From Clostridia bacterium (GTDB lineage: Bacteria > Bacillota > Clostridia > Oscillospirales > CAG-382), in the NCBI GenBank assembly GCA_017399965.1, contig JAFQAP010000003.1:40028-104027 (forward strand): DNA of 64,000 bases, in the 5' to 3' direction. Positions 5,486-60,749 of this stretch are shown here, one piece after another. The notes beneath the pieces are model-generated. The model searched no databases. It saw only the letters and a program-made list of their open reading frames with translations, and had not been told where the DNA came from. The stretch's first letter is position 1. Each line of letters begins with the position of its first letter. The position numbers and the translations under genes were made by a program.

Positions 5486-5692
5486 TTTGGCGTGATACTC
5501 TTAACGGAGTATCACGCCAGTTCTATTCGCCTTTGGCGAGTGATATTGCTACGCAGTGATATTCGGCTTGCGCCGAGTGTTATTCTCTTCGCGAGTTTAT
5601 GGGCGAATAGAATATCACTGTGAGGCGTAGACGAACAATATCACTGCTCGCAAGGGCAATATCACTCTTTGCGAAAGCAAAGAATATCACTC
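5486..5692. repeat. Repeat island with GTGATAT / ATATCAC words and hairpins
   Basis: The left half has GTGATAT(T) words and the right half has (A)ATATCAC words. Hairpins include GGCGTGATACTC...GAGTATCACGCC, TCGGC-ttgc-GCCGA and CTTTGC-gaaa-GCAAAG. A long-range pair joins TTCTATTCGCC with GGCGAATAGAA. Confidence 0.8.
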
Positions 5693-7469: not shown

Positions 7470-7812
7470 TGCCGTCTGTAATAACCCAAAATCTGCATAG
7501 ACTATCGTCTATAGAACTCAAAGTTCGCACAAACAAGCGTCTGTAGAACTCAAAGTCTGCACAAACAAGCGATGGTAAAACGCTGGAGAAAAGGTCTTTC
7601 GCGAGCGGTAGCTGTAGTAATCTACAGCCAGCGAAGCGAAAGCCTTTAAAAAACGCAAAATAAAGATAAAAGAACTTCCGTAGATTTTTCTACGGAAGTT
7701 TTCCTTTAATTATGGGTGTTCGGCAGGAGCAAGCCCCTGCCCTACATTTGGAAACGCACTGAACAGAACGATTTATTTCTTGCGTTTTTGGTCTACAGTG
7801 CTTTTACCGAGC
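7470..7812 (-). repeat. Family-B composite repeat (about 300 nt), inverted orientation
   Basis: Reverse complement aligns with 37812-38070, 27013-27325 and 39005-39310. Shared modules are tgtaGGGC.GG...CC.GCC, CCGTAGA-aaaa-TCTACGG, GCTGTAGnnnnCTACAGC and cagcgttttaccatcgct. Confidence 0.85.
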
Positions 7813-7816
7813 GCAA

Positions 7817-8593
7817 TTATTTCTGCGCTGCAGAAATAATTGCATAGAAGTCGGGTGCTTTGAGAGACGCCCCGCCAATAAGTCCGCCGTCTACGTTGAC
7901 CTTGCCGAGAAGCTCGTCTGCATTCTTTGCGTTCATAGATCCGCCGTACTGAATGGTGGTAGCCTCTGCAACTGCGGAAGAATAGAGAGCAGCAACTACG
8001 TTTCTGATCACGTCGCAAACCTCGTCTGCCTGGTCGGATGTAGCGGTTTTGCCGGTACCGATCGCCCAAACGGGTTCGTAAGCGATGATAACGTTTTTCA
8101 TCTGTTCTTCGGTAACGCCGAGAAGTGCTACCTTGGTCTGGAGAGAAACGGTTTCATCGGTAATGCCCTGCTCGCGCTGTTCGAGAGTTTCGCCAACGCA
8201 GAGGATAACCTTAAGACCTGCTTCGAGAGCAGCCTTTGTGCGAAGATTTACGGTAACGTCAGTTTCGCCGAAGTACTGTCTTCTTTCGGAGTGGCCGATA
8301 ATAACGTATTCAACACCGATAGCGGTGAGCATGGAAGCAGAAATTTCGCCGGTATATGCGCCGCTTGCCGCAAAATGCACGTTTTCTGCGCCAACCTTGA
8401 TGGGAGAGCCCTTTGCAGCTTCCATAACGGGAACGAGATCTACGTAAGGAACGCAGGTAACGATCTCGCAACCGGATACGTCCTTGCCTTCGATCTCTGC
8501 TTTGATAGCGTTTATAAGTTCAACTGCTTCTGCAGGAGTTTTGTTCATTTTCCAGTTTCCTGCGATAACAGCTTTACGGGTAGCTTTGTTCAT
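7817..8593 (-). CDS. tpiA: Triose-phosphate isomerase
   Basis: 258 aa with the motifs AGNWKMN, IIGHSERR, YEPVWAIGTG and GGASL. Confidence 0.95.
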   Translation of the reverse strand: MNKATRKAVIAGNWKMNKTPAEAVELINAIKAEIEGKDVSGCEIVTCVPYVDLVPVMEAAKGSPIKVGAENVHFAASGAYTGEISASMLTAIGVEYVIIGHSERRQYFGETDVTVNLRTKAALEAGLKVILCVGETLEQREQGITDETVSLQTKVALLGVTEEQMKNVIIAYEPVWAIGTGKTATSDQADEVCDVIRNVVAALYSSAVAEATTIQYGGSMNAKNADELLGKVNVDGGLIGGASLKAPDFYAIISAAQK

Positions 8594-8628: not shown

Positions 8629-8770
8629 AATGAGGAATGAGGAACGAGGAACCCACCCCAAAAACGCATAGCGTTTTCGGGGAACCCCGGGAATGAGAAA
8701 CGAGAAACTATGGTTGATTTTTGCCCCAAGGGGCAAAAATCTTCCTTTTCTTTTCACTCTTCACTCTTCA
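8629..8770. repeat. Family-A island inside the pgk-tpiA intergenic space
   Basis: In order: AATGAGG heptads, the CCCC..GGGG hairpin (8656-8682, reverse form), GATTTTTG-CCCCaaGGGG-CAAAAATC (8716-8741), then TCACTCT heptads. The pgk stop codon (8768-8770) lies in the last heptad. Confidence 0.85.
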
Positions 8771-14903: not shown

Positions 14904-15560
14904 TTAGAAGTTTTTGCAAAGCGGACAATCGAACAGTCCTTCCTCTTCCATAGCGCTGTGGTCGCAGGGGATAAGTTCGAATTTTACATAGTATCCGCTT
15001 TTTTCTGCGTATTCGATCAACTTTTCTACGTCTGCGCCGGATAGATAACCGCAAAAAACTCTTACCCCGTCTTCGGCTCCTCTGACAGAAAAGGTTTGGA
15101 TCTCTAAAGGAATATTGCCTGCTTCGAGCCAATTACGGATCTCGTCCTCGTCTGCGAAATCGAATTTTGTTTCGACGGTTATTGTTGATTCATCGTACTT
15201 ATCAGCATAATATGCATACATTATCACGTGAATTAAAACTTCATACTTGCTGTGAGCATCGACAATGTCTTTAAAAACCGGACTGTAATTCGGATATTCG
15301 GGCCATTCGTTTGAATATGCGCCGCCTATACTATCACTGTGGAGAGGCCATCCTTTAAGAAAATCCCAATCTTCATCCATTCCCCAAGGCTCTATTGTTA
15401 TCAACACTTCGCTTTCCTGCGTAGAAACTTCTTCGGAAACATCGCTTATATTGCTTTCGCTTATATCCGCTTTACTCTCTTCGGGAGTATCACAGCCTGC
15501 AAACATAGCCGCAACCATAAGAAAACAAAGTAAAATGCTTGTAAATTTAATTAGTTTCAT
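14904..15560 (-). CDS. Lipoprotein paralog 1 (C-terminal CPLC)
   Basis: 218 aa starting MKLIKFTSILLCFLMVAAMFAGCDTPEESKADISE. Mature domain is homologous to 15611-16246. Ends FDCPLCKNF. Confidence 0.75.
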   Translation of the reverse strand: MKLIKFTSILLCFLMVAAMFAGCDTPEESKADISESNISDVSEEVSTQESEVLITIEPWGMDEDWDFLKGWPLHSDSIGGAYSNEWPEYPNYSPVFKDIVDAHSKYEVLIHVIMYAYYADKYDESTITVETKFDFADEDEIRNWLEAGNIPLEIQTFSVRGAEDGVRVFCGYLSGADVEKLIEYAEKSGYYVKFELIPCDHSAMEEEGLFDCPLCKNF

Positions 15561-15610
15561 ATAAACACTCCTTTCTAATTACGGTTTGTCCACAGGGCAA
15601 GACCGAAAAC

Positions 15611-16246
15611 TTAACACTTAGGGCAATCGAAGCTATTATCGTCTTCAACGCACCAAGATTCGGTGACATGGGAAAAATACAGATGATACCCGTACTCATT
15701 TCCGTACTCAATAAGTTTTTCTAAATCTTCAAAGGAAATGTAACCCAAAAAGCCGCTTACCTCTTTTTTATTGCCGTTAATATCTTTGATTTCGAAAGTT
15801 TGGTATTCAAACGGAATACCGCCTGCTTTCAACCAGCTTTGTATCTCTTCTATATCGCAGGGATCTTTTTCATTATCCGACCGGTACGGAATGTTATTTG
15901 GATCGGGGTAATAAGCCTGCAGAGCAACGTGAACCAACACGTCAACACCTTCATGTGATTCTATCGTATTATAAAAGGTGTTGCTGTAATTCTGATAAGG
16001 TTCCCACGTGTCGCCGTAACCGTCTGCAATATTGTTGTTGTGCCGCGGCCAGTCTTTAAGAAAATCCCAGTCGTAATCGGTTCCCCAAGGCTCGATTTTT
16101 TCCAACACTTCGCTTTCCTGCGCAGAAACTTCTTCGGAAACTTCGCTTATATCCGCTTTACTCTCTTCGGGAGTATCACAGCCTGCAAACATAGCCGTAA
16201 TCATAAGAAAACAAAGTAAAATGCTTGTGAATTTAATTAGTTTCAT
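15611..16246 (-). CDS. Lipoprotein paralog 2 (C-terminal CPKC)
   Basis: 211 aa. The signal/lipobox cassette is nearly identical to paralog 1. Shares IEPWG.D.DWDFLK.WP.H and LIEY...GY. Ends FDCPKC. Confidence 0.75.
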   Translation of the reverse strand: MKLIKFTSILLCFLMITAMFAGCDTPEESKADISEVSEEVSAQESEVLEKIEPWGTDYDWDFLKDWPRHNNNIADGYGDTWEPYQNYSNTFYNTIESHEGVDVLVHVALQAYYPDPNNIPYRSDNEKDPCDIEEIQSWLKAGGIPFEYQTFEIKDINGNKKEVSGFLGYISFEDLEKLIEYGNEYGYHLYFSHVTESWCVEDDNSFDCPKC

Positions 16247-16294
16247 ACATATTCACCTCTCTAATTACGGTCATCCCATCGGGTAGGATTGAGC

Positions 16295-16735
16295 TTATTG
16301 CGGTGCGGGCAACACATAATATTCGATATTGAATCTGTCAAGATCGGCGATAGTGACTTTTCCGTCTGCCATAGCTTCTTTTACGTTCTGGCTGGTTCCG
16401 TCCTCATATTCCACAATAATATATTTATGCATAGATGTATTTGAAAACGCATACTCATAGTTTTCATCTATATAAAATGTATCGAGCCCTTCGTCCCACA
16501 TAGTCTTCTCACCTCGTTTGTCGACAATAACAAACCCTAAACCCTCCGAAACTTCTACGGAACCTTCTTCAGATGTTTCTTCAGAAACGGTTTCGGATAC
16601 ATCTTCGGAGTTTTGCAAAAGAGAATCCTTTGAGGTTACGTCTGCTTTGCTTTCTTCGGGAGTATCGCATCCTGCAAAAACGGCAACAAGAAGAATAATG
16701 CAAAGCAAAATGCTTGTAAATTTAATTAGTTTCAT
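16295..16735 (-). CDS. Lipoprotein with the same signal cassette but an unrelated mature domain
   Basis: 146 aa starting MKLIKFTSILLCIILLVAVFAGCDTPEESKAD, followed by an acidic linker and a different C-terminal domain. Confidence 0.7.
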   Translation of the reverse strand: MKLIKFTSILLCIILLVAVFAGCDTPEESKADVTSKDSLLQNSEDVSETVSEETSEEGSVEVSEGLGFVIVDKRGEKTMWDEGLDTFYIDENYEYAFSNTSMHKYIIVEYEDGTSQNVKEAMADGKVTIADLDRFNIEYYVLPAPQ

Positions 16736-16967
16736 TTAAATACTCCTTTCCGGTTGCATATATAATACTTTTGAAACGGCAAAAAGGTTACATAAAAAAT
16801 TTTTTAAAAAACTTGGCACATTTATTTTACCATATTATTCCTACATTTTCAATTATGCAAAATTGCCGAATATACCGCGCCTTTTTTGTCGGGGTCCCCA
16901 AGAAGTCGCAGACTTCTTGGGGTGATTATGCAGGGAAAACAAAGGGCATTTTTATTTGTGTAAAAAT

Positions 16968-17466: not shown

Positions 17467-17700
17467 ATGATGAATGAGGAAACACCGTCTGTAGCAGTAA
17501 AATCTAAAGGACGCGGAGCATTTGGATGCAGAAGCCTTTTTCGCGAGCGGGGAGCTGTAGTAACCTACTGCCTCCCGAGCGAAAATGGCTACAAAAACGC
17601 AAATAAAATAAAATTTTGAAGACGATTTTCGTCGGAAAAATTTTCACCTATTTTCTGTAATTAAAGCGGCGGAGGCAAGCCATCCGCCCTACAAACGGAA
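17467..17700 (-). repeat. Family-B composite repeat, inverted orientation, preceded by ATGATGAATGAGG words
   Basis: Reverse complement aligns with 39060-39300. Carries the GGCGGA...TCCGCC variant of the tgtaGGGCGG hairpin, plus GACGA-ttt-TCGTC. Confidence 0.85.
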
Positions 17701-17788
17701 GATAACTGCACGAAAATATTTATATGTTTTTGCGTTTTTGGTTCTGCGCCGAATGAACGCGTACATACAAAGAAAGGAAATTAATAAT

Positions 17789-23124: not shown

Positions 23125-23244
23125 TTGATGAATGAGAAATGATGAATGTTGAATGATGAAAGATGAATGATGAATGATGGTTGATTTTTGTTCTGCGAAC
23201 AAAAATCTTCCGAAATTTCTCATTCCTCGTTCCTCATTCCTCAT
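23125..23244. repeat. Family-A island
   Basis: In order: ATGAATG/AATGAGA heptads, GATTTTTG-TTCtgcGAA-CAAAAATC (23183-23207), then CATTCCT heptads that end directly against the glyQS stop (23245-23247). Confidence 0.85.
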
Positions 23245-24642
23245 TTAAAACTTAAGTCTTTCGGAAATGTAATTTTTAACTTCACCGATAGGCATTCTCA
23301 CGCTTTCCATAGTATCGCGGTCGCGTACGGTCACGCAGCCGTCCTCAACGGATTCGAAATCGTATACCACGCAGAAGGGAGTACCGATCTCGTCCTGTCT
23401 GCGGTAACGCTTGCCGATACTGCCGGCTTCGTCATATTCGCACATAAAATCGGAGCAAAGGTCATAGTATATCTCTTTTGCCTGCTCGCCCAGCTTCTTG
23501 GAAAGGGGAAGCACCGCGCACTTATAGGGTGCGAGAGCAGGGTGGAGACGGAGTACGTAACGGATATCTTCTTTTCCGTCTTTAGAAAGATCTTCCTCGT
23601 CGTAAGCATCAACAAGGAAAGCAAGCAGAACTCTGTCTGCGCCCAGAGAGGGTTCGATAACGTAAGGCACGTATTTTTCGCCATTTTCGGGGTCGAAATA
23701 CGAAAGATCCTCGCCGGAATGGGCAGAATGTGCCTTAAGGTCGAAATCCGTTCTGGAAGCAACGCCCCACAGCTCGCCCCATCCGAAGGGGAACATAAAC
23801 TCAAAGTCGGTGGTAGCGTTGGAATAGTGAGCCAGTTCCTTGGGGTCGTGGTCACGCATACGGATATTTTCGGGGTTTATGCCCAGATTTACAAGCCAGT
23901 TATAGCAATAATCCTTCCAGTATACGAACCAATCAAGCTCGGTGCCGGGCTTGCAGAAGAATTCCAATTCCATCTGCTCGAATTCACGGATACGGAAAAT
24001 AAAGTTGCCGGGGGTGATCTCGTTTCTGAAGGATTTGCCGACCTGCGCAACACCGAAGGGAACCTTGCGGCGGGTGGTACGCTGAATGTTCTTGAAGTTT
24101 ACAAAGATGCCCTGCGCGGTTTCGGGACGGAGGTATACCTCTGCCTGGCTGTCCTCGGTAACGCCCTGGAAGGTCTTGAACATCATATTAAACTTGCGGA
24201 TGGGAGTAAAATCGCACTTGCCGCAGGTGCAGGTAACGCCCTTTTCAACGATATAATTGTACATTTCGTCGTTGGACATACCGTCAACGTGCATTTCGAT
24301 ACCGTTTTCTTTGTTCCATTTTTCAATAAGCTGGTCTGCACGGTGGCGCATTTTACAGCTCTTGCAGTCGATAAGAGGATCGTTGAAGTTAACAACGTGT
24401 CCCGATGCAACCCAGGTCTCTCTGTTCATAAGAATAGCGGAATCCAAGCCTACGTTGTATCTGCTTTCCTGCACGAACTTTTTCATCCAGGCGCGCTTGA
24501 TGTTGTTTTTAAGCTCTACGCCCAAAGGGCCGTAGTCCCAGGCGTTTGCCAGACCGCCGTATATTTCGCTGCCGCTGTAAACAAATCCTCTGTTTTTACA
24601 AAAGGCAACGATCTTTTCCATTGTTTTTTCGTTGTTGTTCAT
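23245..24642 (-). CDS. glyQS: Glycine--tRNA ligase (dimeric class II, GlyQS)
   Basis: 465 aa from [20 protein letters not shown], with a GGGAGAAAG RBS. Class II motifs and a C-terminal anticodon-binding domain. The track N-terminus (24714) runs through the promoter. Confidence 0.95.
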
Positions 24643-24874: not shown

Positions 24875-27004
24875 TTATTGCATTTTTGACATCTTTCGCT
24901 GGGCGAGGACGAGCTTTGAATACCGTCCGCCGGATTTCATCAGCTCTTCGTGGGTGCCGATCTCCTCCACTGTGCCTTTTTCCAGCACCACCAGCTTTGT
25001 GGAGTTTCGCAAAGTGGAAAGGCGGTGGGCTATGGCTATTGTGGTGCGGTTTTTGGAAAGTGCCTGCACCGCATCCTGCACCATTTTTTCCGTTTCCGTA
25101 TCCAGAGAAGCGGTGGCTTCGTCAAGAATAAGTATCTTCGGGTCACGGAGCACGGCGCGGGCAATGGCGATACGCTGTTTTTCGCCGCCGGAGAGGGAGG
25201 AGCCCCGCTCGCTTATATAGGTGTTATACCCATCGGGCAGGCGCATAATGAAATTGTGTGCGTTTGCCAGCTTTGCGGCGTTTATAACCTCTTCTGCCGT
25301 ACAGTCCGGCTTTGCGTATGCGATATTATCGTACACCGTGCCGCGGAACAGATAGGTTTCCTGCAGTACCACGCCGATATGGGAACGGAGTGAATGCTGG
25401 GAATAATCTTTTATATCCTTTCCGTCTATGGTAAGAGTTCCTCCCGTAAGATCGTAAAGGCGCATTATAAGGTTTATCATAGTGGACTTACCTACGCCGG
25501 ACCTGCCGACAATACCCACCATTTCACCCTTGCTTATATCCACGGAAACGTCCTTAAGCACGTTTTCGTAGGAATTATAGCCGAAATAAGCGTTTTTAAA
25601 GGAAATATTACCTTCTATATCCCCTTCGATACAGTCCTCTTTATCTGCGATCTCCGGCTCTTCGTCGATGATCTCGAACACCTTTGACATACTTGTAAAA
25701 GCTCTTGTAAGTCTGCGGGGCATATTGGACATCCAGCGTAAAGGACCGTAGATCATAGAAACGTAGGAAAGCACCAACGCCATATCGCCCAGTCCTATCT
25801 CGTTGCCCAAAAGCATACTGCCCAGAATATATATGGCGGCGTAGTTGCCCAAAGAAAGCACAAAATCCGCCACGGGCATTGTAAGGTTCCAGATAAGCTC
25901 GTTGCGCACGGAAATATCCCTGAACTTGCGCGCCGCTTTTTCAAACCGTTTTTTCTCGTATTCCTCGGCGCCGAACACCTTTACCACACGGATACCCGAA
26001 AAGATATCGTGCAAAGCGGTGCCGCCCTCGGAGTTTGCCTGCCATTGTGCGCCGTACAGACGGTGGGTGTACTTCATAAGCACACGGAACACGATAAGCA
26101 TAAAAGGCACGGGCAAAAGGATAACCAAAGCAAGCATAGGGTTCATAACAAGCAGTATTACCGTAACTGCCGCAAATATGAGCACCTGCTGTACAAGTGC
26201 GGGCAGATCGTTTACCAGCACGTCGCGGAGCACCTGAGTGTCCTCGGTGACACGGTTTATAAGCTCACCTGCGGTACGGCGGGAAACCCCTGCAAGAGAA
26301 AGCTTTTGTATGGCTTGGTACACGGTCTTACGCAGGTCGGTAAGCAGTCCCGTAGATGCCTTTACCACCAAGGCACTGCGCAGCACGGATAAAAGAGCGC
26401 TTAAGATTCCCGTTCCCGCCATAGCGAGAACAAGGGTAATAAAGCCGTAAAACACCTTGCTTTCCGAGGTGTTGATGCCCTCTGCGGTAATATAATCGTT
26501 TATAAGGGTACGGCTTATGCCGGGTGCGATCATAGAAACCGCGGAAATGGCAAAAACCGCAAGCAGAGAAAGCAGTATGGGCAGGATATAGGGCTTTACA
26601 AAAGGCAGCAGTCTGCGAAGCAGCAGAGTTTTATCTACGCAATGGGGGCAGGAAACAGACCCCGGCGCAAACCGTCTGCCGCATTTTTCGCAGTAACGCT
26701 TTGAATAGGGGTCGGCTTCGCCCACGCCTCTGCCCTCTATAAAAGAGGTAAGACGCTTTGCCGCAGATTGCAGCTCCGCAGAAACGGACATATCCCCGCG
26801 GCATATTTCCGTTACGCCGTCACGGGAAGTTCCCTCAATGGCGCAGCAGCCGAAATAGGGGATATAGCGTATCTCCGTGAACTCTGTCATATCATAGAAG
26901 GTATCGCCCTTTTCGCTGTGCAGACAAAGGGTGTTTCCCTCCATGGTTCCGATGCCGTTTATTCGATTGTTGTTAAAGTCAAGGTTGAATTTTAGTAAAG
27001 TCAT
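24875..27004 (-). CDS. ABC transporter, fused permease/ATPase, with an N-terminal extra domain plus zinc ribbon
   Basis: About 709 aa if the start is MTLLKF (27004). The start is uncertain because the track start at 27031 lies in a repeat copy. Contains CEKCGRRF...CPHC, six TM helices, Walker A GRSGVGKST, signature LSGGEKQR and Walker B ILILDEAT. Confidence 0.85.
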   Translation of the reverse strand: MTLLKFNLDFNNNRINGIGTMEGNTLCLHSEKGDTFYDMTEFTEIRYIPYFGCCAIEGTSRDGVTEICRGDMSVSAELQSAAKRLTSFIEGRGVGEADPYSKRYCEKCGRRFAPGSVSCPHCVDKTLLLRRLLPFVKPYILPILLSLLAVFAISAVSMIAPGISRTLINDYITAEGINTSESKVFYGFITLVLAMAGTGILSALLSVLRSALVVKASTGLLTDLRKTVYQAIQKLSLAGVSRRTAGELINRVTEDTQVLRDVLVNDLPALVQQVLIFAAVTVILLVMNPMLALVILLPVPFMLIVFRVLMKYTHRLYGAQWQANSEGGTALHDIFSGIRVVKVFGAEEYEKKRFEKAARKFRDISVRNELIWNLTMPVADFVLSLGNYAAIYILGSMLLGNEIGLGDMALVLSYVSMIYGPLRWMSNMPRRLTRAFTSMSKVFEIIDEEPEIADKEDCIEGDIEGNISFKNAYFGYNSYENVLKDVSVDISKGEMVGIVGRSGVGKSTMINLIMRLYDLTGGTLTIDGKDIKDYSQHSLRSHIGVVLQETYLFRGTVYDNIAYAKPDCTAEEVINAAKLANAHNFIMRLPDGYNTYISERGSSLSGGEKQRIAIARAVLRDPKILILDEATASLDTETEKMVQDAVQALSKNRTTIAIAHRLSTLRNSTKLVVLEKGTVEEIGTHEELMKSGGRYSKLVLAQRKMSKMQ

Positions 27005-27426
27005 AAAAAATACCAATGGGAGCGCGTTCATTCGGCGCAGAACTAAAAACGCAAAAATTATAAATAGTTCTGTTTAGCGAATCTCCACAATGTAGGGCGG
27101 GGGTTTACTCCCGCCGCTCTAATAACACATTAATAGGTAAAAAATTTTCCGACGAAAATCGTCTTTAAAATTTTATTTTATTTGCGTTTTTATAGAAGCT
27201 TTTACTTCGCTAGCTGTAGATTACTACAGCACGCTCGTAAAAGACTTCTTCTGCATCCAAATGCTCCGCGTCCTTCAGATTTTGAGAACTACAGCCGGTA
27301 GATTTCGAAGAAATTAATCAATAGTTTTTTGCATTTTTGCAAAAAACTTACCGAAATTTCTCATTCCCGGGGTTCCCCGAAAACGCTATGCGTTTTTGGG
27401 GTGGGTTCCTCATTCCTCATTCATCA
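27005..27426 (+). repeat. Family-B composite repeat (27013-27325) followed by a family-A island (27325-27426), inside the ABC cluster
   Basis: Aligns with 39005-39310. Followed by TTTTTTGCA-ttt-TGCAAAAAA, the CCCC..GGGG hairpin (27375-27401) and CATTCCT/CATTCAT heptads that abut the stop at 27427. Confidence 0.85.
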
Positions 27427-27993: not shown

Positions 27994-30272
27994 TCCTCTA
28001 TACCGATAGTTTTGAGTGCTTCCGCCTGCATCTTGTAAAGCTTGTAATAAACTCCCTTTGCCTTAAGCAGTTCGGTAGCCGTGCCTTTTTCCGGCATTTT
28101 TCCGTTTTCCACCACTACAAGGAAATCCGCATCTCTGAGTGTGGAAAGTCTGTGTGCTATCATTATGGTGGTGCGTCCCTTGGCAAGACGGGTGAGGGAT
28201 GCCTGTATCTGTCTTTCCGTCTGGGTGTCCATGGCGGCGGTGGCTTCGTCAAGAATAAGTATCTTCGGATCTCTCAGCACAGCGCGGGCGATGGATATTC
28301 TTTGCTTTTCGCCGCCGGAAAGGTCTTTTCCGCCCAAGCCCACCATAGTTTCGTACCCTTCGGGGTATTTTATGATAAACTGATGTGCGGACGCTATCCG
28401 CGCCGCTTCCATAACCTCTTCGTCGGTAGCGTCGGGACGGGCATAGCGTATGTTTTCCTTAATGGTGCCGCGGAACAGATATGTTTCCTGAGAAACTATA
28501 GCCACGTTTTCACGCAGGGACTTAAAGGAGATATCCTTTACGTTTATTCCGTCTATGTATATTCCGCCTTCGTTAACGTCATAAAGACGGGTGAGCAGGT
28601 TTACCAGAGTGGATTTGCCCGCACCTGTTTTACCTACTATACCTACCGTCTTTCCCGCAGGGACATCGAAGGAAATTTTATCGATAACAACACGGTTTTC
28701 TTCGTATGAGAACACCACGTTATCAAACTTGACGTCCCCCTTTACGTCGGTAAGGGAAACGGCATTTTCCGCTTCGCGCACCTCGGGCACGGAATCTTTA
28801 ATTTCAAAAAGTCTTTGCATTGCGTTAAGACATTCGCTCCACCAGTTGGAAACGTCGGCAAAAAACTGCAAAGGTCCGGTAATAAGCCCGAAATATGCGA
28901 TAAAAGCAGAAAGCGCGGCGTAATCCATATTACCGGTCCGGTTCATTACCTGCCATCCGCCTACGCCCCATACCACGTAAAGCCCTGCCTGAAGCAAAAA
29001 GCCTATTAAAGGATAGGACTTTGCGGAAAGCATACCTGCCTCCGCCACAGTTTCCGCATGGGCGCGGTTGCGTTTATCAAACCGCTTGCTCTCCTCGTTT
29101 TCACGGGAGAAGGATTTTACCACACGCATACCGTTAAGAACGTCGGATATAAGGGAATTGAGCGCTCTTCTTCTCGCCCAGTTCCGCGCCCATAGCTTAT
29201 CAAAGGCGAGGAACAGATATTTATATGCAAAAAAGAATACGGGAACCGTTATAAACGAAAACAAAGTAAGCAGAGGGTTTGCCGCCAGCATTACACCCAT
29301 TACGCAAAGCAGGGTAAGGATGTTTGTTACAAGATAGGGGAACCCATCGCAGAAAAACCAATAAAGTGTTGTGGCGTCCCCGTTTACCTGTGTCATAAGT
29401 CCGCCTGTCTGGCGGGAGGTAAAGAAGGAAAGGGAAAGCTTGTTTATGTTTTCGAAAATAAGCATTTTAAGGTCATAAGTGACCTGCGCCGCCGTGCGGG
29501 AGGATAGCGTGCCCACAACAAGGTTTACTATAAGGAAAGCGATGCGCACACCGATGATAAGCAGTACCACGGTGCCGATCATTCCGTACATACTGCCCCC
29601 TTCTTCCAAAACCTCTCCGTAAAGGAGCTGGTTGGAAACGTAGGGCACCGCCACGGAAAGAGCAGAGGACGCCAAAAACGCCACCATAAGCAAAAGCACA
29701 AAGCCCTTGTATCTTGAGAAAAGAGATACCATTTTTTTAATAAGCTTGGTTTTTTCAAGACATTTCGGGCATACTTTTCTTTGCTGGTCGGGGTATCGCA
29801 TACCGCACTTGGGGCAGAATTTTTCTTTGCTGCGCTCGTCGGCGTGCTTTTCTTCGTCTATCTTTCCGTCTTTTTTAAGTTCCTTTATGCAGGCGCAGAT
29901 AACGTTTGCTTCGTGCTTGCAGGCAGAGGAAACGTCAAAAAGAGGAACGGTATCGTTTCCGAACACCGCGGTAACGCGGGCTGTGGATATAAGCAGTTCT
30001 GTTTGGGGATCACTCATATCCGCGATCGTATATTCCCGTTTATCAAAGCAATCAAACCGCTGAACTCTTTTTCTTCCCTGCTTTTGCAGTATAAGTACTC
30101 CTTCGGCAACGTAAAGCTTTTCGGCGGTAAGCACCACAAAGGTGTCCGCCTTTATGCCGGGAAACGCCATATCGGAACGCATTACCGCCAAAGCAGAGGA
30201 AATATCTATATCGTTTTGTTCAAAAAATGCCAAAGCGGAAGATGGCAGTTCGCATAATTTAAGCATTTGCAA
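27990..30272 (-). CDS. ABC transporter, fused permease/ATPase, with an N-terminal extra domain plus zinc ribbon
   Basis: 760 aa. N-terminal roughly 150-aa domain, then CPKCGMRY...CPKC, a TM domain, Walker A GKTGAGKST, signature LSGGEKQR and ILILDEAT. Confidence 0.9.
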   Translation of the reverse strand: MQMLKLCELPSSALAFFEQNDIDISSALAVMRSDMAFPGIKADTFVVLTAEKLYVAEGVLILQKQGRKRVQRFDCFDKREYTIADMSDPQTELLISTARVTAVFGNDTVPLFDVSSACKHEANVICACIKELKKDGKIDEEKHADERSKEKFCPKCGMRYPDQQRKVCPKCLEKTKLIKKMVSLFSRYKGFVLLLMVAFLASSALSVAVPYVSNQLLYGEVLEEGGSMYGMIGTVVLLIIGVRIAFLIVNLVVGTLSSRTAAQVTYDLKMLIFENINKLSLSFFTSRQTGGLMTQVNGDATTLYWFFCDGFPYLVTNILTLLCVMGVMLAANPLLTLFSFITVPVFFFAYKYLFLAFDKLWARNWARRRALNSLISDVLNGMRVVKSFSRENEESKRFDKRNRAHAETVAEAGMLSAKSYPLIGFLLQAGLYVVWGVGGWQVMNRTGNMDYAALSAFIAYFGLITGPLQFFADVSNWWSECLNAMQRLFEIKDSVPEVREAENAVSLTDVKGDVKFDNVVFSYEENRVVIDKISFDVPAGKTVGIVGKTGAGKSTLVNLLTRLYDVNEGGIYIDGINVKDISFKSLRENVAIVSQETYLFRGTIKENIRYARPDATDEEVMEAARIASAHQFIIKYPEGYETMVGLGGKDLSGGEKQRISIARAVLRDPKILILDEATAAMDTQTERQIQASLTRLAKGRTTIMIAHRLSTLRDADFLVVVENGKMPEKGTATELLKAKGVYYKLYKMQAEALKTIGIEE

Positions 30273-30535: not shown

Positions 30536-31657
30536 ATGGCAAAAATCGCAATACTCGGCTTCGGCGTGGTAGGTCAGGGCGTATACGAGGTTTTAAATAC
30601 CAATTCCCGTCTTATAACCGCCCGCACGGGAGAAGAGTTTATTATAAAACGCATACTGGATAAAAGAGTTTTCCCCAACCATCCTTTGGGGGACAGAGTA
30701 ACGGCAGATCTTAACGATATACTTAACGATACGGAAATTTCCGTAGTTGCGGAGACTATGGGCGGCACTTCCCCCGCTTATGAATTTTCCCTTGCTCTTA
30801 TCCGCGCAGGCAAAAGCGTGGTCACCTCCAACAAAGCGGTGGTTGAAAAGCACGGAAAAGAGCTTTGCGCAGAGGCGGCAAAACACGGCGTGGCATATCT
30901 TTACGAAGCTTCCGCAGGCGGCGGAATTCCCGTAATACATCCTATTCTCCACTGTCTTGCAGGTAACGATATTCAAAAGGTGTGCGGTATACTTAACGGC
31001 ACCACCAATTATATACTCACAAAAATGCGGGACGAGGGCCTTTCCTTTGATACCGCTTTAAAGCAGGCGCAGGCACTCGGCTATGCGGAGGCGGACCCTA
31101 CGGCAGACGTTTCCGGCGCAGATGCGGCGCGTAAAATATGCATATTGGCGTCCCTTGCCTTTAATACCCATATCGCACTGGAAAACGTATCCGTTATGCA
31201 GGGTATCGAGGACGTGACGGAAGAAGACGTTATCAAAGCGGAAAAGCGGGGATACGCCGTAAAGCTTATCGGCTTCGGTGAAAAAACGGGAGATACCGCG
31301 CGGCTGTTCGTTGCCCCCTGTCTTGTAAGCAAAAAGACGGTGCTGGGCATAACCGATGACGTTATCAACGCCGTTTCCGTTTACGGCGATTGCGTGGGCG
31401 GAGTGACCTTCCGCGGCAGAGGCGCAGGCGGAAAAGCCACCGCGTCCGCCGTTGTTTCGGATATTCTTGAAGCACACAGCGGCAAATATGTTAAAGAATA
31501 TAAAAACGAAAAAGTATCCTTCCTCAACGTGAACGAAGGAAAGGATATGCTGTATATACCCGAAACCGACGAATTTATACAGCCCGATACGCTGGAAAAT
31601 CAGTTGAAGGCTGTAGGAAGTAAGAAGTATTATAGGGTAGTTGAGATAGCGGAATGA
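30536..31657 (+). CDS. hom: Homoserine dehydrogenase (no obvious C-terminal ACT domain)
   Basis: 373 aa with the motifs ILGFGVVGQG, VVTSNKA, EASAGGGIP, GILNGTTNYIL and GYAEADPTADVSGADAARK. Confidence 0.9.
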   Translation: MAKIAILGFGVVGQGVYEVLNTNSRLITARTGEEFIIKRILDKRVFPNHPLGDRVTADLNDILNDTEISVVAETMGGTSPAYEFSLALIRAGKSVVTSNKAVVEKHGKELCAEAAKHGVAYLYEASAGGGIPVIHPILHCLAGNDIQKVCGILNGTTNYILTKMRDEGLSFDTALKQAQALGYAEADPTADVSGADAARKICILASLAFNTHIALENVSVMQGIEDVTEEDVIKAEKRGYAVKLIGFGEKTGDTARLFVAPCLVSKKTVLGITDDVINAVSVYGDCVGGVTFRGRGAGGKATASAVVSDILEAHSGKYVKEYKNEKVSFLNVNEGKDMLYIPETDEFIQPDTLENQLKAVGSKKYYRVVEIAE

Positions 31658-31775
31658 GGAAGGAGGAATGAGGAATGAGGAATTACGGAAGATTTTTGTT
31701 CTGTGAACAAAAATCAACCATCATTCATCATTTAGCATCGCGTTCGCGATGCGTCGCATTCATCATTTCTCATTG
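31652..31775. repeat. Family-A island
   Basis: The hom stop TGA (31655-31657) lies inside the first AATGAGG word. Followed by GATTTTTG-TTCtgtGAA-CAAAAATC (31691-31715), CATTCAT heptads and GCATCGC-gttc-GCGATGC. Confidence 0.85.
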
Positions 31776-31828: not shown

Positions 31829-31903
31829 TGGTGACCCGTAGGGGAGTCGAACCCCTGCCTTCGCCGTGAGAGGGCGACGTCTTGACCACTTGACTAACAG
31901 GCC
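31829..31903 (-). tRNA. tRNA-Glu (anticodon CUC), CCA encoded
   Basis: The - strand reads GGCCTGTTAGTCAAGTGGTCAAGACGTCGCCCTCTCACGGCGAAGGCAGGGGTTCGACTCCCCTACGGGTCACCA, close to Firmicute tRNA-Glu. Anticodon loop CT-CTC-AC. An upstream TTGACA-17-TAATAT promoter lies at about 31910-31945. Confidence 0.85.
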
Positions 31904-34516: not shown

Positions 34517-34667
34517 AGTGAAGAGAGACGAGAGAAAAGAGAAGAGAAACGGAAGATTTTTGCAAAGCGTTGCAAAAATCAACATTCATTCCTCATTCCT
34601 CATTCCTCATTCCCGGGGTTCCCCGAAAACGCCATGCGTTTTTGGGGTGGGTTCCTCATTCCTCATT
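34517..34667 (+). repeat. Family-A island
   Basis: In order: a GA-rich arm, GATTTTTG-CAAagcgTTG-CAAAAATC (34555-34580), CATTCCT heptads, the CCCC..GGGG hairpin with a CAT loop (34621-34647), then CCTCATT. The stop of the - strand gene (34663-34665) lies in the last heptad. Confidence 0.85.
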
Positions 34668-35485: not shown

Positions 35486-35606
35486 AAATGAGGAACCCGT
35501 TTCGGGAGAGAAGAGATAAGAGAGAAAAGAGAAAAGATTTTTGCAAAGCGTTGCAAAAATCAACCATCATTCCTCATTCATCATTCCTCATTCATCATTC
35601 CTCATT
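35486..35606 (+). repeat. Family-A island (same hairpin core as 34555-34580)
   Basis: In order: an AATGAGG word, a GA-rich arm, GATTTTTG-CAAagcgTTG-CAAAAATC (35536-35561), then CATTCCT/CATTCAT heptads abutting the stop at 35606-35608. Confidence 0.85.
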
Positions 35607-36037
35607 TATCTTTTCTTTGCCGCTTTCTTTATTATATCCGCTTTTGTCTGCTTTTTTCCTGCGGCGATGTATCCTCCCAGCAAAGGGGCAAGCGCCGCCG
35701 CAAGGGGAGGGAGCACACGGGCGAGCAGGTTTTCGCTTTCGGGGAAAAAGGCGCATAATACCCCCAGCAAAACAAGGGTAGTCACTGCGGCGTAAACTCC
35801 GCTTATTAATGCGCCCCCCAGCTTTACCGCCAAAAATCCCCCTGCCATACCGCCCAAACCTATGGCTATACACGCTGCGGTAAGGATATGGGAAGCGGGG
35901 TCTGCACTTCCCGCAAACGCCGCCGCAAGACACAGCATTAACAAAACAGATACAAAGGGCACGGCAACACCGCCGATAAGTCCGCCCAACAGAGGGTTTA
36001 AGGTGAGTTTATTTTCTTTTTTCATCTTTGCGCACAT
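35606..36037 (-). CDS. Small Gly-rich membrane protein (TIGR04086/YrzE-like)
   Basis: 143 aa (or 139 aa from MKKENK at 36025). Three to four Gly/Ala-rich TM helices. Confidence 0.4.
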   Translation of the reverse strand: MCAKMKKENKLTLNPLLGGLIGGVAVPFVSVLLMLCLAAAFAGSADPASHILTAACIAIGLGGMAGGFLAVKLGGALISGVYAAVTTLVLLGVLCAFFPESENLLARVLPPLAAALAPLLGGYIAAGKKQTKADIIKKAAKKR

Positions 36038-37079: not shown

Positions 37080-37811
37080 ATGAAAGCTTTAATACTTGCA
37101 GGCGGTAAAGGAAAACGTCTGGGCAGCGATATAACCCATATTCCCAAGGTAATGCGCAAGGCTTTGGGCAAGCCTCTGCTGGGCTACGTGCTGGAATATA
37201 CGGATTTTATCCCCGAAAAAGATAAGGTCATTCTGGTCGGCTACGAAAAACAGGCGGTTATGGATGCGTTCCCCTCATATTCCTTCGCCGTTCAGGAGGA
37301 GCAAAAGGGCACGGGCCACGCGGTTATGTGCGCCGCACCGCATTTTGAGGGATACGACGGGGATATTCTTGTCATAAACGGAGATATGCCCTTGCTTAAA
37401 AGAGAAAGCGTGCTTGCTCTTTTGGATCACCACAAGGAAACGGGTGCGGATTGTACCATACTCACCTTCGTGGCAAAGGGTAATATCCCTCCCTTCGGGC
37501 ATATAATACGTACCGTTTCCGGTTCCGTGGCGGGAATTGTGGAGCACAAGGACGCAAGCGATACTCAAAAGCTCATTCCCGAACTTAACGGCGGTATATA
37601 TATGTTTGACAGCAAAAAGCTGTTCTCCGTCCTTTCCCGCATAACTCCCAGCCCCGTAACGGGTGAATATTATCTTACCGATGTGCCCAAGCTTATGCTC
37701 GCCGAAGGATATAAGGTGGAGGGCTTTATCCTCCCCGATGAAACCGAGCTGGCGGGAGTAAATACGGAAGAGGATCTGAGAGAAGTAGAAAGAATATTAG
37801 GCGCTCGGTAA
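37080..37811 (+). CDS. Sugar-phosphate nucleotidyltransferase (GlmU N-terminal-domain-like)
   Basis: 243 aa with MKALILAGGKGKRL, QEEQKGTGHAV and VINGDMPL. A TTGACA-17-TATACT promoter lies at 37012-37039. Confidence 0.75.
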   Translation: MKALILAGGKGKRLGSDITHIPKVMRKALGKPLLGYVLEYTDFIPEKDKVILVGYEKQAVMDAFPSYSFAVQEEQKGTGHAVMCAAPHFEGYDGDILVINGDMPLLKRESVLALLDHHKETGADCTILTFVAKGNIPPFGHIIRTVSGSVAGIVEHKDASDTQKLIPELNGGIYMFDSKKLFSVLSRITPSPVTGEYYLTDVPKLMLAEGYKVEGFILPDETELAGVNTEEDLREVERILGAR

Positions 37812-38195
37812 AACACTGTAGATCGAAACGCAACGTGTTTAGAAGTTTTACTGCAGCAATTTCCCAAATGTAGGGCGGGTGGCTTGCCCCCGCCGTACCA
37901 TTTACCAAATAAGGTAAAAATTCCGTAGAAAAATCTACGGAATTTTCTTTTTTATTGCGTTTCTACGCATTTTCGCTTCGCTGGCTGTAGAATACTACAG
38001 CTCCCGCTTGCGAAAAAGCGTTCTACAGCGTTTTACCATCGCTTTCGCTCGGTTTTCTGCAGACATTACGTATCAAAAACAATTACACGGTTTTTTGCAC
38101 CGCAAAAAACTACCGAAGTTTCTTGTTTCTCGTTTCTCGTTCCTCGTTGCGGGGTCCCCAAAAATGCGGATGCATTTTTCGGGGTGCCCCTTGCT
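37812..38195 (+). repeat. Family-B composite repeat (37812-38070) followed by a family-A-type island (38070-38195)
   Basis: Contains tgtaGGGCGGG...CCCGCC, CCGTAGA-aaaa-TCTACGG and GCTGTAGaatACTACAGC. Followed by TTTTTTGC-acc-GCAAAAAA, GTTTCTC/GTTCCTC heptads and the CCCC-AAAAATGC..GCATTTTT-GGGG variant (38156-38184). Confidence 0.85.
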
Positions 38196-38265
38196 CCCGC
38201 CGCGAACTGTTTGCGCCAAATTACCGTCTTTTGCGTTTATTCTTTGTTTATACTTGCTGCACAAA

Positions 38266-38341: not shown

Positions 38342-38369
38342 TTGAATTTATGCAAAACTGTGTTATAAT
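38342..38369 (+). promoter_or_regulatory. Promoter of the large ncRNA
   Basis: TTGAAT (38342-38347), 16-nt spacer, TGtTATAAT (38361-38369). Confidence 0.55.
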
Positions 38370-38375
38370 GAATAG

Positions 38376-38995
38376 GCGATGGCGCAGTATTCTAGTTAGC
38401 GCGGCGTTTTTGAAGGCGTGCCTAAAAATACGTCAAACGGCAGATCGATGAAGCTCCTGGTGTTTGCTTTGTACGCCCAGTTCAGGGTGGATGCTGGGAG
38501 AGTGGACTGTGGGCGCACCCCAACGGCATGGGGCGGCTAACCCACTTTCCTTTGAGGCTTTTTCTTCGTGGCGGACCTTAACACATGGAAAAGGGGGCTA
38601 CGGGATTAAGATTAAACCTATCACGCGGTACGACCATTACAGATGCTGTGGATAGATGTAGCCGGCTTTGAGTGGGTCATGGCGGATAACGTTCATGTCG
38701 GGATGAGATTAGCTACCGAACCTCGAATAAATCGCGTTTGAAATCATGCCTGCAAAAGAAGATAAGAAAACGTTTTGCGCTATGGCGGAAAACGCCTAGA
38801 CTGTTATCGTGGCAGATAAACACGTATGGGCACGGTGCGGATTACAGTGCGGACTCATAGGCAATCAAGTCGCGGAACCGGTAACGCTCCGCCTCGGTCT
38901 TTAATGGGGAACCCCTTCATCGGCGACGAGAAGGAGACCGCGGGGAAATCCTACTTGACCGTAAGCCGCAAGGTCTACGTACCGTGCCGCCATTA
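38376..38995 (+). ncRNA. ole: OLE (ornate, large, extremophilic) RNA candidate
   Basis: About 620 nt with no credible ORF and no repeat-family content. It is richer in G+C than the surrounding spacers and has many local helices. It has its own promoter and lies upstream of a 4-TM oapA-like gene followed by dxs-tlyA-nadK-argR-recN, which is the classic OLE synteny. The ends are approximate. Confidence 0.65.
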
Positions 38996-38996
38996 T

Positions 38997-39310
38997 TCAA
39001 AAAGCCATTGGGAGCGCGTTCATTCGGCGCAGAACCAAAAACGCAAAAAATAATATATAGTTCTGTTTAGTTATTTTCCGAATGTAGGGCGGGTGGCTTG
39101 CCCCCGCCGTTTTAATAGTAGATTATAAGGTAAAAATTTTTCCGACGAAAATCGTCTACAAAATTTTATTTTATTTGCGTTTTTGTAGCCGTTTTCGCTC
39201 GGGAGGCAGTAGATTACTACAGCTCCCCGCTCGCGAAAAAGGCTTCTGCTTCCAAATGCTCCGCGCCCTTCAGACTTTTTGTTCTACAGCCATTACATAT
39301 CAAAAACACT
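38997..39310 (+). repeat. Family-B composite repeat between OLE and oapA
   Basis: Aligns nearly end to end with 27013-27325. Confidence 0.85.
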
Positions 39311-39332
39311 TATTTAAATTTTAGGATATAAA

Positions 39333-39899
39333 ATGAAAAACATTAAAGAAAAATCCAAACGCCGTGCGCGGCGGATATGGATCACCTTTGCATTTATATT
39401 CAGCTTTTTTATGACCGCCCTCCTCTCCCTTATGTCGGGCGAGGCGTTGGAGGATCTTCCCGTTTGGGCAGCGCTGGCGGTGCTGCTTATCTTTATTTTG
39501 CTGGGCATTGTGTTCGATATGATCGGACTTGCGGTCACCACGGCGGATATTTCCGCTTTTAACGCAATGGCGGCAAAAAAAGACCCCGTGGGAAAGCGGG
39601 CTGTATGGCTTATCGCCAATGCGGAAAAGGTGTCCTCCTTTTGCAACGATATAGTGGGTGATATTTGCGGTGTCGTTTCCGGTGCTTCGGCGGCTTCCAT
39701 TGCGGTGGTGCTGTTTTCCCGGCTTGATTACGAGCTGTCGTTTTGGCTTACGCTGTCTCTCACGGCGCTGGTTTCCTCCATCACTGTGGGAGGAAAGGCG
39801 CTGGGCAAGCGTATAGGTATGGATAAAAGCAGGGAAATAACCCTTTTTGTTGCAAAGGTGCTTTGCATATTCACAAAAAAAGAGAGAAAGAAACAGTAA
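39333..39899 (+). CDS. oapA: OLE-associated membrane protein OapA-like (4 TM helices)
   Basis: 188 aa with a basic N-terminus, four predicted TM helices and DIVGD in TM3. Located between the ncRNA and dxs. Confidence 0.6.
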   Translation: MKNIKEKSKRRARRIWITFAFIFSFFMTALLSLMSGEALEDLPVWAALAVLLIFILLGIVFDMIGLAVTTADISAFNAMAAKKDPVGKRAVWLIANAEKVSSFCNDIVGDICGVVSGASAASIAVVLFSRLDYELSFWLTLSLTALVSSITVGGKALGKRIGMDKSREITLFVAKVLCIFTKKERKKQ

Positions 39900-45386: not shown

Positions 45387-45404
45387 TACAATCACGGGTT
45401 TTTT
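45374..45404 (+). terminator. Rho-independent terminator overlapping the recN stop
   Basis: ACCCGTGA-tacaa-TCACGGGT stem followed by TTTTTT. Confidence 0.8.
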
Positions 45405-45528
45405 GAATGAGGAATGAGGAATGCGCCGCGTTGCTTCGCACCGCTAAATGAGGAATTTCGGAAGATTTTTGTTCGTTACGAACAAAAATCAACCATCATT
45501 TCTCATTCATCATTCATCATTCCTCATT
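45405..45528 (+). repeat. Family-A island
   Basis: In order: AATGAGG heptads, the aatgCGCCGC...GCTAAATGA module, GATTTTTG-TTCGttaCGAA-CAAAAATC (45464-45490), then CATTTCT/CATTCAT/CATTCCT heptads. Confidence 0.85.
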
Positions 45529-45559
45529 AAAAAATGCCGCCAAAAAGGCGGCGTTTTTT
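45529..45559. terminator. Bidirectional terminator hairpin
   Basis: AAAAAATGCCGCC-aaaaa-GGCGGCGTTTTTT. Confidence 0.75.
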
Positions 45560-48919: not shown

Positions 48920-48937
48920 AAGTTTTCTCCTTTATTT

Positions 48938-49070
48938 AATGAGGAATGATGAATGCGACGCGATGCAAAGCATCGCTAAATGATGAATGATGGAAACCTT
49001 TTTCACGCTTCGCGTGAAAAAGCTACCGAAATTCCTCATTCCTCATTCCTCATTCCTCATTTTCATCATT
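48938..49070. repeat. Family-A island
   Basis: In order: AATGAGG/AATGATG heptads, GCGATGC-aaa-GCATCGC, CTTTTTCACGC-ttc-GCGTGAAAAAG, then CATTCCT heptads. The pyrR stop (49066-49068) lies in the last word. Confidence 0.85.
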
Positions 49071-51009: not shown

Positions 51010-51105
51010 GGAATGATAAATGATAAATGATGAATGATGGTTGATTTTTGTTCGCAGAACAAAAATCTTCCGTAATTTCTCATTCCTCATTCCTCATTCA
51101 TCATT
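51004..51105 (-). repeat. Family-A island (inverted relative to 52389-52515)
   Basis: In order: AATGAGG/AATGATA/AATGATG heptads, ATGGTT, GATTTTTG-TTCgcaGAA-CAAAAATC (51043-51067), CTTCCG, then CATTCCT/CATTCAT heptads. Confidence 0.85.
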
Positions 51106-51128
51106 AATTTTTACGGAGTAAAAATTCT

Positions 51129-52515: not shown

Positions 52516-52552
52516 TCTTCACTATACTTTGAAAGAAGGCAAAATTAAAACC

Positions 52553-60745: not shown

Positions 60746-60749
60746 ATAT

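Follow-up and report, generated by a model that had tools for sequence, protein, structure and literature searches.

A composite intergenic repeat with a conserved predicted fold and a GTAG-tagged REP-type hairpin in ruminant-gut Clostridia

How does an ordered set of hairpins of about 300 nt come to stand at several separate places of one bacterial genome, and is its fold kept for the element itself or for the host? The question is raised by a stretch of 64,000 nt from Clostridia bacterium (CAG-382) (GCA_017399965.1, contig JAFQAP010000003.1, forward 40,028-104,027), in the following called the window, for which a first-pass annotation had described a composite repeat at five loci. We refer to this ~300-nt composite repeat as family B and designate matched loci by L-numbers (e.g., L011). 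An ENA metagenome scaffold (XIEF21-1_SAMN15829892_METAG-scaffold_554, 82,410 bp) matches the window at 100% identity. On the evidence presented here, family B is probably a structured mosaic repeat resembling BIME, BOX and bcr elements that has incorporated one GTAG-tagged repetitive extragenic palindrome (REP).

Using three copies as query, blastn returned exactly five family-B loci in the window that share 72-88% identity with pairwise E-values of 1e-13 to 1e-97, and nhmmer profiles built from the copies recovered the same five loci and none else above noise (Table 1). This is far beyond chance, and the five loci are those of the first-pass annotation. The single order of modules proposed there is correct in all five copies and constant across 20 copies of the family. 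All five copies are full length. Two boundaries had to be revised: the 37.8-kb copy, taken to be partial, is full length, and the 17-kb copy, thought to end at 17700, extends ~65 nt further to 17767. The element was described as lacking an open reading frame (ORF), and reading the sequences by eye, short of a formal ORF comparison, revealed no ORF common to the copies.

Relatives were found by a two-anchor pattern consisting of the start of hairpin H2 and the tip of hairpin D2 (see below), which yielded 15 further family-B loci in five metagenome-assembled genomes of ruminant-gut Clostridia/Oscillospiraceae, two of them syntenic with the window at 85-89% identity. The pattern had no matches in the metagenome contig collection and none in viral contigs, and blastn in 'distant' mode returned no match for family B from plasmid and phage collections. 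Since the two-anchor pattern came back empty from the metagenome contig collection, the full composite appears limited to a narrow clade. A comparison with Rfam 15, as had been proposed with the initial description, gave no match at gathering score and, at E<10, only chance-level similarities of at most 25 bits.

In the predicted structures, long-range stems unite the modules of family B into one conserved, nested fold of ~250 nt. Unconstrained minimum-free-energy (MFE) folds, computed separately, converge on one architecture for nearly all of 19 copies, and RNAalifold concurs. A terminal stem, P0/P1, joins the 5' end to sequence ~215 nt downstream, closes a two-domain junction and doubles as a terminal inverted repeat of 18-26 nt (~18 nt in subfamily 2, GGTAAAACRCTGTAGAAC; ~26 nt and imperfect in subfamily 1). 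The consensus of P1 is G[C/T]AGAA paired with TTCT[G/A]C; P0 occurs in three unrelated versions, each of them self-complementary. Domain 1 is formed by stem P2 (AAAAACGCAAA with TTTGCGTTTTT) around H2, the GTAG-tagged GGGCGGG hairpin, and H3, an A-loop hairpin flanked by A/T. Domain 2 (D2) is a 60-nt hairpin with the tip GC[A/T]GTAG-nnnn-CTACAGC. A 3' tail of 40-90 nt holds extra copies of GTTCTACAG, three of which stand in tandem 32-nt units in the 7.7-kb copy.

This architecture assigns new roles to several modules of the initial description. The proposed cagaac...gttctg module is not kept as a pair across copies, as the nearby GTTCTG does not covary; the true conserved partner of CAGAAC is TTCTGC, ~215 nt downstream in stem P1. 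The module tttgcgttttt does exist, as the 3' strand of the long-range stem P2 with aaaaacgcaaa as its partner, and so does cagcgttttacc in the 7.7- and 37.9-kb copies, where it constitutes the 3' strand of the closing stem P0/P1 and pairs with ggtaaaacactg at the 5' end of these subfamily-2 copies. The two A-loop forms are not related by compensating point changes; they are instead different indel derivatives of a longer H3 hairpin, TTCCGTAGACGAAAATCGCCTACGGAA, that is intact in L007, L004 and L013. The family did not dissolve into independent small hairpins without order, as might have been feared, and is described by a single nested fold with fixed order.

Covariation was evaluated on a MAFFT alignment of 16 copies with 39 hand-placed pairs covering P1, H2, outer H3 and D2, and P2 and P0 were analysed separately by anchored extraction. 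Standard pairs occupy 96.1% of the cells, and both sides have changed in 12 pairs (56 cells). The covariation score amounts to 0.266 vs. 0.106 in shuffles; none of 500 shuffles reached the observed value, and slid partners gave 0.077 at most. At the base of D2 at least ten distinct complementary sequences are found, with one pair running through AU, GC, UA and CG. Compensation in P2 is seen among the relatives as exchanges between A:T and G:C and as GCGAA/TTCGC in L007. The stem-strand table bears out the H2 variants reported at the outset, i.e., GGCGGG/CCCGCC in the 27-, 37.9- and 39-kb copies, GGCGGA/TCCGCC at 17 kb and GGCAGG/CCTGCC at 7.7 kb. Pair-preserving stem changes are thus present as claimed, although much of this compensation looks like swaps of whole hairpin modules between copies.

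Fold z-scores are -4.3 for the + strand and -5.1 for the - strand. In 15 of 16 copies, the folding energy of the reverse strand is ~9 kcal/mol below that of the forward strand, which is a composition effect because shuffled sequences fall by the same amount. G-U pairs account for 66 (+ strand) and 101 (- strand) of ~1400 pairs, and the consensus pairs comprise 5 G-U vs. ~8 A-C.

The kinship of family B is indicated by H2. In all 16 copies this hairpin measures 24-25 nt, forms eight pairs, in some cases with a T bulged out, and has a folding energy of -13 to -16 kcal/mol; an unpaired TGTAG precedes the stem on its 5' side in every copy, and GTAG/CTAC is enriched 5.3-fold within B. At least 120 metagenome contigs from the human gut and other environments contain exact matches to the H2 pattern, with flanks unrelated to B, and the B profile aligns with these contigs at H2 positions only. 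They contain 202 GTAGGGCRG sites, at which the hairpin is found alone or in inverted doublets. Among close neighbour sites, 36 of 56 are inverted, and the GTAG-to-GTAG spacing peaks at 65-77 nt, which is the layout of REPINs. Homologues of REP-associated tyrosine transposases (RAYT) were detected by tblastn at 11 of the 120 H2-pattern loci listed: two hairpins in inverted orientation flank a RAYT-type gene in L065, seven hairpins lie downstream of such a gene in L062, and at several loci an H2-type hairpin resides within the RAYT ORF itself, where it is translated as GRGLAPAE. The best family for the L065 and L062 ORFs is NCBIfam REP_Tyr_transpos with 68-70 bits (E ~1e-19), under the equivalog cut-off of 80. 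All these features fit the published definition of GTAG REPs and their association with RAYTs (PMC3733652, PMC2817692, PMC3116915), and judged by sequence H2 belongs to a widespread family of GTAG-tagged REPs. Within the B-bearing lineage, 21 of 25 H2-type sites sit in B, and the window has none outside B. Because H2 represents a widespread REP that is found beside RAYT-type genes, family B is of a known kind, namely that of REP-containing mosaic repeats; we take it to be a new family of such intergenic DNA, selfish or semi-domesticated, and not an RNA gene of a new class.

A second GTAG-tagged hairpin type, family D (GTAGGGGAYG..CGTCCC), is present in repeat mosaics at 380-560 and 4420-4700 of the window; in L018 it is also found behind the stop codon of the RAYT gene, and in L029 it takes the place of H2 after a B-like 5' part. 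The coding sequences of RAYT genes themselves contain GTAG hairpins, and do so at conserved positions (L011 1510-1545 and 1745-1775; proteins P0002-P0112; L098, L086, L043). One RAYT clade has hairpins of the D type, translated as VGTGV[P/L]DRP (sense) and RTPVPTG (antisense), another the H2 type, translated as GRGLAPAE. The type of hairpin inside the ORF may mark the cognate repeat of each enzyme.

If family B is a mosaic repeat with an incorporated REP, its fold would be retained since copying or recombination requires the element to adopt it as single-stranded DNA, an argument that has been made for REPINs (PMC3116915). Either process would most plausibly be carried out by a RAYT/IS200-like tyrosine transposase recognising GTAG-tagged hairpins. 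Read-through from an upstream gene would produce the same fold in a 3' untranslated region (3' UTR), where H2 and H3 could serve as a 3'-end barrier or terminator; the strong form of H3 would then stand at the ends of transcription units and the weak form where read-through is needed. REPs, ERIC and SPRITE are precedents for effects of 3'-UTR structure (PMC3733652, PMC3184786).

A number of observations weigh against this interpretation. Each B element contains one REP, whereas BIMEs alternate REPs and REPINs pair them in inverted orientation. The 64-kb window encodes no transposase of any kind, and the only RAYT seen in the lineage (L011, L016-L018, L029, L030) has another repeat, family A, on its flanks and in its ORF the two D-type hairpins, with none of the H2 type. 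Since the window is without a RAYT and the RAYT of the lineage combines D-type hairpins with family-A flanks, an enzyme acting on B in this lineage is one that we can only infer. At the polymorphic 39-kb site, other repeats have taken the place of B, which is thus not simply present or absent; neither a target-site duplication at the core or tail ends of the copies nor a clean empty site was found. Identity between the 39-kb copy and its counterpart at the corresponding site in L011, from a species with only 61-62% identity at four-fold sites, reaches 89.5%, which would also fit purifying selection by the host on a functional RNA. Lastly, the folded strand cannot be called; neither energies nor G-U counts favour the sense strand.

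The RAYT-like ORF of L011 (196 residues; REP_Tyr_transpos, 59 bits; Y1_Tnp at cut-off) lies between the OLE RNA and a B copy. The idea that B is the cognate repeat of this gene was rejected, as the same gene has family A on its flanks in L016, L017 and L030, and the place of B behind the stop codon in L011 is no different from its place at other genes. Family A, which in these three loci flanks both sides of the gene, is for this reason likely the cognate repeat of the lineage RAYT.

That family B is subject to turnover is evident from the comparison of strains. Four sister strains (L020, L021, L022, L026) with flanks 96-98% identical to those of the window lack the 39-kb copy. In these strains 38996-39284 is replaced, with 175 nt of families A and C (see below) vs. 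a 290-nt B copy, and the replaced stretch is bounded by the end of OLE (CGCCATTA) and TACAGCCATTACATATC. The 7-nt sequence GCCATTA flanks the strain-variable 39-kb segment as well as the alternative insert in L020. The site in L012 orthologous to the 17-kb copy features other repeats together with an inverted fragment of the B 5' end; the L003 site is not syntenic upstream, and tpiA and the dockerin gene were found only on contigs identical to the window. Family-C elements are present in the H2 loop of the L020 orthologue of the 37.8-kb copy and in D2 of L002, L005 and L015, and several contigs stop inside or beside the 39-kb copy. The 7.7-kb copy shares only 75-80% identity with its positional orthologue in L012, vs. 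93.6% for tpiA, ~99% for the downstream promoter region and 94-99% for the flanks, and its closest relative is the non-orthologous L001 copy (84%). The nearest neighbours of the copies change from module to module. These data fit recombination among copies and lineages kept similar by selection on element or host; they do not fit neutral decay in place.

The spacer between OLE and oapA appears as a hot spot in its own right, as it harbours B in the window, families A and C in the sister strains and a membrane ORF with the RAYT gene in L011, L018 and L029.

The alternative that deserves most attention is that family B is primarily a structured RNA selected by the host, either a small RNA in multiple copies or a 3'-UTR module that acts in cis to stabilise, to terminate or as a switch coupled to translation. 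Duplication would have brought it to many gene ends, and mobility would be of no present importance. With nested family-C insertions discounted, a long co-oriented ORF ends 6-28 nt upstream of P1 in 13 of 19 copies, so that B starts in sense at a fixed distance past stop codons; the ispD stop codon (37809-37811) is located within the 5' end of the 37.8-kb copy, and the 39-kb copy begins at the 3' end of OLE RNA. The 17- and 27-kb copies and probably L008 are nevertheless antisense to the flanking genes, i.e., at least three copies speak against a host RNA. A scan for terminator patterns flagged H3 in the 37.8- and 7.7-kb copies and did not flag it in the 27-, 17- and 39-kb copies. The subfamily-2 H3, with a predicted stem of 12-14 bp followed by a T-run, appears terminator-like, which speaks for a host module, and in the 7.7-kb copy it is situated downstream of tpiA and ahead of the near-consensus promoter from which the next gene would be transcribed; the H3 of subfamily 1 is weak and located where read-through would be needed (OLE to oapA) or inside operons. 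Termination at H3, however, would keep P2, D2 and P1 from forming within one and the same transcript.

The strong covariation, with conserved loops and junctions beside variable yet complementary stems, the similarity of the 39-kb and L011 copies noted above and a G-T wobble at pair 209:228 retained in 12 of 16 copies are what a host-selected RNA would exhibit. Such an RNA should not be missing from strains with 96-98% identical flanks, as the 39-kb copy is, nor should the positional orthologue of the 7.7-kb copy diverge faster than its flanks and be pieced together from other copies. H2 and D2 receive insertions of smaller repeats, the copies have no conserved promoter ahead of them, and G-U pairs display no strand asymmetry. 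Taken together, we regard a host RNA as rather unlikely.

We also consider it unlikely that the 250-nt fold is more than parasitic DNA, namely an RNA or single-stranded DNA device used by the host in the form of a portable 3'-end module fixed 6-28 nt past stop codons in which the terminating ribosome would open the closing stem, the strong and weak forms of H3 would set termination vs. read-through and the REP would have been co-opted. If true, uncultured gut Clostridia would possess a large, structured regulatory RNA of a new class.

An origin as a classical MITE, i.e., an insertion sequence with internal deletions that a DDE transposase would mobilise in trans via P0/P1, is quite improbable. 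Of the two hallmarks that the first-pass annotation suggested looking for, terminal inverted repeats are indeed present in the form of P0/P1 (~18 nt in subfamily 2, ~26 nt and imperfect in subfamily 1), and a length below 400 nt, intergenic location and strain-level polymorphism agree with a MITE; target-site duplications, the second hallmark, were not found at the core or tail boundaries. Three unrelated outer repeats surround one inner core, which is unexpected for ends bound by one transposase, structural constraint extends into the interior well beyond the ends, the tail holds extra copies of the right end, and no parent element was found in ~850 kb of matched 8-kb loci. Retrons are single-copy and adjacent to their own reverse transcriptase, and a retron-like RNA, with the closing stem as a1/a2, domain 1 as msr, the long hairpin as msd and the reverse transcriptase elsewhere, is extremely improbable, as the likeness is confined to overall shape (a terminal duplex, two or three hairpins, then a long hairpin with variable stem), no ORF of the window has a reverse-transcriptase YxDD motif in matching context, family B is multi-copy at ordinary gene ends, and no conserved unpaired G follows the 5' strand of the closing stem.

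Table 1. Family-B copies, their structural parts, other repeats and RNA features (positions refer to the window unless a locus is named).
Feature	Position	Strand	Remarks
Family-B copy, subfamily 1	27013-27320	+	blastn, nhmmer; antisense between two ABC-transporter operon genes
Core of 27-kb copy	27021-27278	+	tail follows core
Family-B copy, subfamily 1	38996-39312	+	blastn, nhmmer; between OLE RNA 3' end and oapA
Family-B copy, subfamily 2, full length	37800-38087	+	blastn, nhmmer; 5' CGGTAA supplies ispD stop codon
Family-B copy, subfamily 2	7470-7823	-	blastn, nhmmer; begins 3 nt past tpiA stop codon
Core of 7.7-kb copy	7561-7812	-	tail 7470-7560 = three tandem 32-nt units
Family-B copy, subfamily 1	17483-17767	-	blastn, nhmmer; antisense between two + strand genes
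P0/P1 5' strand, reference copy	39013-39035	+	GCGCGTTCATTCGGC-GCAGAAC; partner 39244-39273; MFE folds, pair counts
P1/P0 3' strand, reference copy	39244-39273	+	TTCTGC..CCAAATGCTCCGCGC
P0 version, subfamily 1			GCGCG..CATTCGG with CCAAATG..CGCGC
P0 version, subfamily 2			GGTAAAAC with GTTTTACC
P0 version, L014 and L009			AACTG with CAGTT
P2 5' strand, reference copy	39037-39050	+	AAAAACGCAAAAAA; partner TTTGCGTTTTT at 39174-39184
H2, 39-kb copy	39084-39108	+	GTAG-tagged GC-rich hairpin, REP module
H2, 27-kb copy	27092-27115	+	REP module
H2, 37.8-kb copy	37870-37894	+	REP module
H2, 7.7-kb copy	7722-7745	-	REP module, GGCAGG/CCTGCC variant
H2, 17-kb copy	17668-17692	-	REP module, GGCGGA/TCCGCC variant
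H3, weak subfamily-1 form	39132-39167	+	AAAATTTT..GACGA-aaa-TCGTC..AAAATTTT
H3, strong subfamily-2 form	37916-37946	+	13-bp stem then T-run; terminator-like on both strands
H3, strong subfamily-2 form	7673-7702	-	terminator-like; between tpiA and promoter of next gene
D2, reference copy	39185-39244	+	tip GCAGTAG-ATTA-CTACAGC; basal 4-6 bp differ between copies, still complementary
Family A	561-599, 8730, 11533, 23131-23250, 24793, 27328-27366, 31653-31753, 34525-34623, 35506-35618, 38090-38153, 45399-45533, 48931-49066, 51005-51110, 52388-52528
Family C	428-463, 628-705, 4530-4610, 8654-8689, 16889-16924, 27368-27403, 34614-34649, 38150-38190, 60907-60942
Family D	477-486, 4476-4485	-
Family D	519-528, 4512-4521	+
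Family D, other loci	L018 ~4690-4730; L029 ~270-300
OLE RNA gene	38363-39009	+	Rfam RF01071, 386 bits; promoter-like site 38342-38369
Gut-1 RNA	5518-5588	+	51.4 vs. 50 bits, just over threshold
TPP riboswitch	60747-60845	+	54.8 vs. 54.3 bits, at threshold
tRNA gene	3120-3190	+
tRNA gene	31832-31903	-

Family A comprises at least 13 copies with 7-nt repeat arms (AATGAGG/CCTCATT), which are purine-rich, around a TTTTTGC-nnnn-GCAAAAA hairpin; it is often followed by CTACC (GTAG on the other strand) and directly adjoins several B copies at their 3' ends. The hairpins of family C, 36-46 nt long with the sequence GGGGTTCCCCG-AAAACGC..GCGTTTT-TGGGGTG, insert into other repeats, e.g., into family A in the window. 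Isolated fragments of B occur at two places. A piece of P0-3'/tail (TTTTACCATCGCTTGTCTGTGCGGACTTTGGGTTCT) is located at 4651-4700 (-) within the mosaic at 4.6 kb, and at 38150-38260 (+), downstream of the 37.8-kb copy, a family-C copy is joined to the 3' half of H2 (cttgctcccgccg), where L018 keeps an intact hairpin.

Among the neighbouring genes, oapA (39333-39899) and then dxs follow the OLE RNA gene, which has family-B copies on both sides. The 27-kb copy is flanked by paralogous ABC transporter genes with a DUF1854 gene between them; these share a common 122-nt segment (25075-25196 and 28202-28323, 79% identity). As suspected in the first-pass annotation, the apparent upstream start of one ABC transporter ORF is provided by the element, because the ATG at 27031 is the reverse complement of its own CGCGTTCAT, which is present in every subfamily-1 copy; further in-frame ATGs are available at 27004 and 26944. 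Repeats of 114-147 nt with 71-88% identity recur every ~490-700 nt at 15338-16777 over three adjacent minus-strand ORFs (14904-15560, 15611-16246, 16295-16735) that look like tandem paralogous genes. GC skew is flat over the whole window.

Good descriptions of REP/RAYT systems and mosaic repeats come mainly from Proteobacteria. Here, a REP from a family widespread in gut bacteria is embedded in a much larger element of uncultured ruminant-gut Clostridia that folds over long range and covaries. Family B thus offers a concrete case for asking how REPs get built into larger structured units and whether a fold is selected for the element (copying) or for the host (3'-UTR function). In practical terms, it breaks metagenome assemblies, as contigs end within the element, and it may create false ORF starts and stops such as the upstream ATG of the ABC transporter ORF and the stop codon of ispD. 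As it flanks the OLE RNA gene on both sides, it should therefore be masked when these genomes are annotated.

Compared with established families, B is not a strict member of the REP, BIME, REPIN, MITE or IS200-derived elements, because each of these has at least one defining feature that B lacks or may lack. It resembles GTAG REPs (Nunvar 2010; Di Nocera 2013; Bertels & Rainey 2011) in the imperfect GC-rich palindrome of 24-25 nt with unpaired 5' GTAG, in the occurrence of the identical hairpin, alone and in inverted doublets, beside and inside RAYT-like genes of gut-metagenome contigs, and in its location mostly just downstream of coding regions, where one B copy even provides the stop codon; REPs, too, are mostly found downstream of genes (PMC3733652). 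It differs in that, in its own lineage, H2 is present almost only as a singlet within the 300-nt composite, while the RAYT is flanked by family A. With the BIMEs of Enterobacteria it shares the ordered mosaic of a REP and short conserved motifs, the existence of several variants, the intergenic position, often at gene 3' ends, and the habit of other repeats (A, C, D and the tail module) to abut or nest in it. The REPs of BIMEs are, however, regularly spaced in alternating orientation, whereas B has a single H2. We know of no BIME for which a long-range, covarying single fold of the other modules has been described.

The singlet H2 likewise sets B apart from REPINs, the layout of which is mimicked by the P1 arms of subfamily 2 alone (CTGTAGAAC/GTTCTACAG), subfamily 1 having GCAG/CTGC. 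From IS200/IS605-derived elements (PATE) it is distinguished by 5' flanks that vary between copies and by the presence of terminal inverted repeats. H3 is one module of a far larger fold and weak in subfamily 1, unlike SPRITE and intrinsic terminators, although the subfamily-2 H3 with its T-run is terminator-like and stands at gene 3' ends as these do. BOX from Streptococcus pneumoniae and bcr1 from the Bacillus cereus group have no sequence similarity to B; bcr1 is flanked by 5-bp direct repeats, none of which were seen in B, and B contains a GTAG REP. Like B, these are modular Gram-positive intergenic repeats of 150-600 nt with paired ends and a stable fold; BOX and bcr1 are often co-transcribed with the upstream gene, and the fold of bcr1 is reported to be kept through compensatory changes, with SPRITE and BOX behaving in a similar way (PMC3184786).

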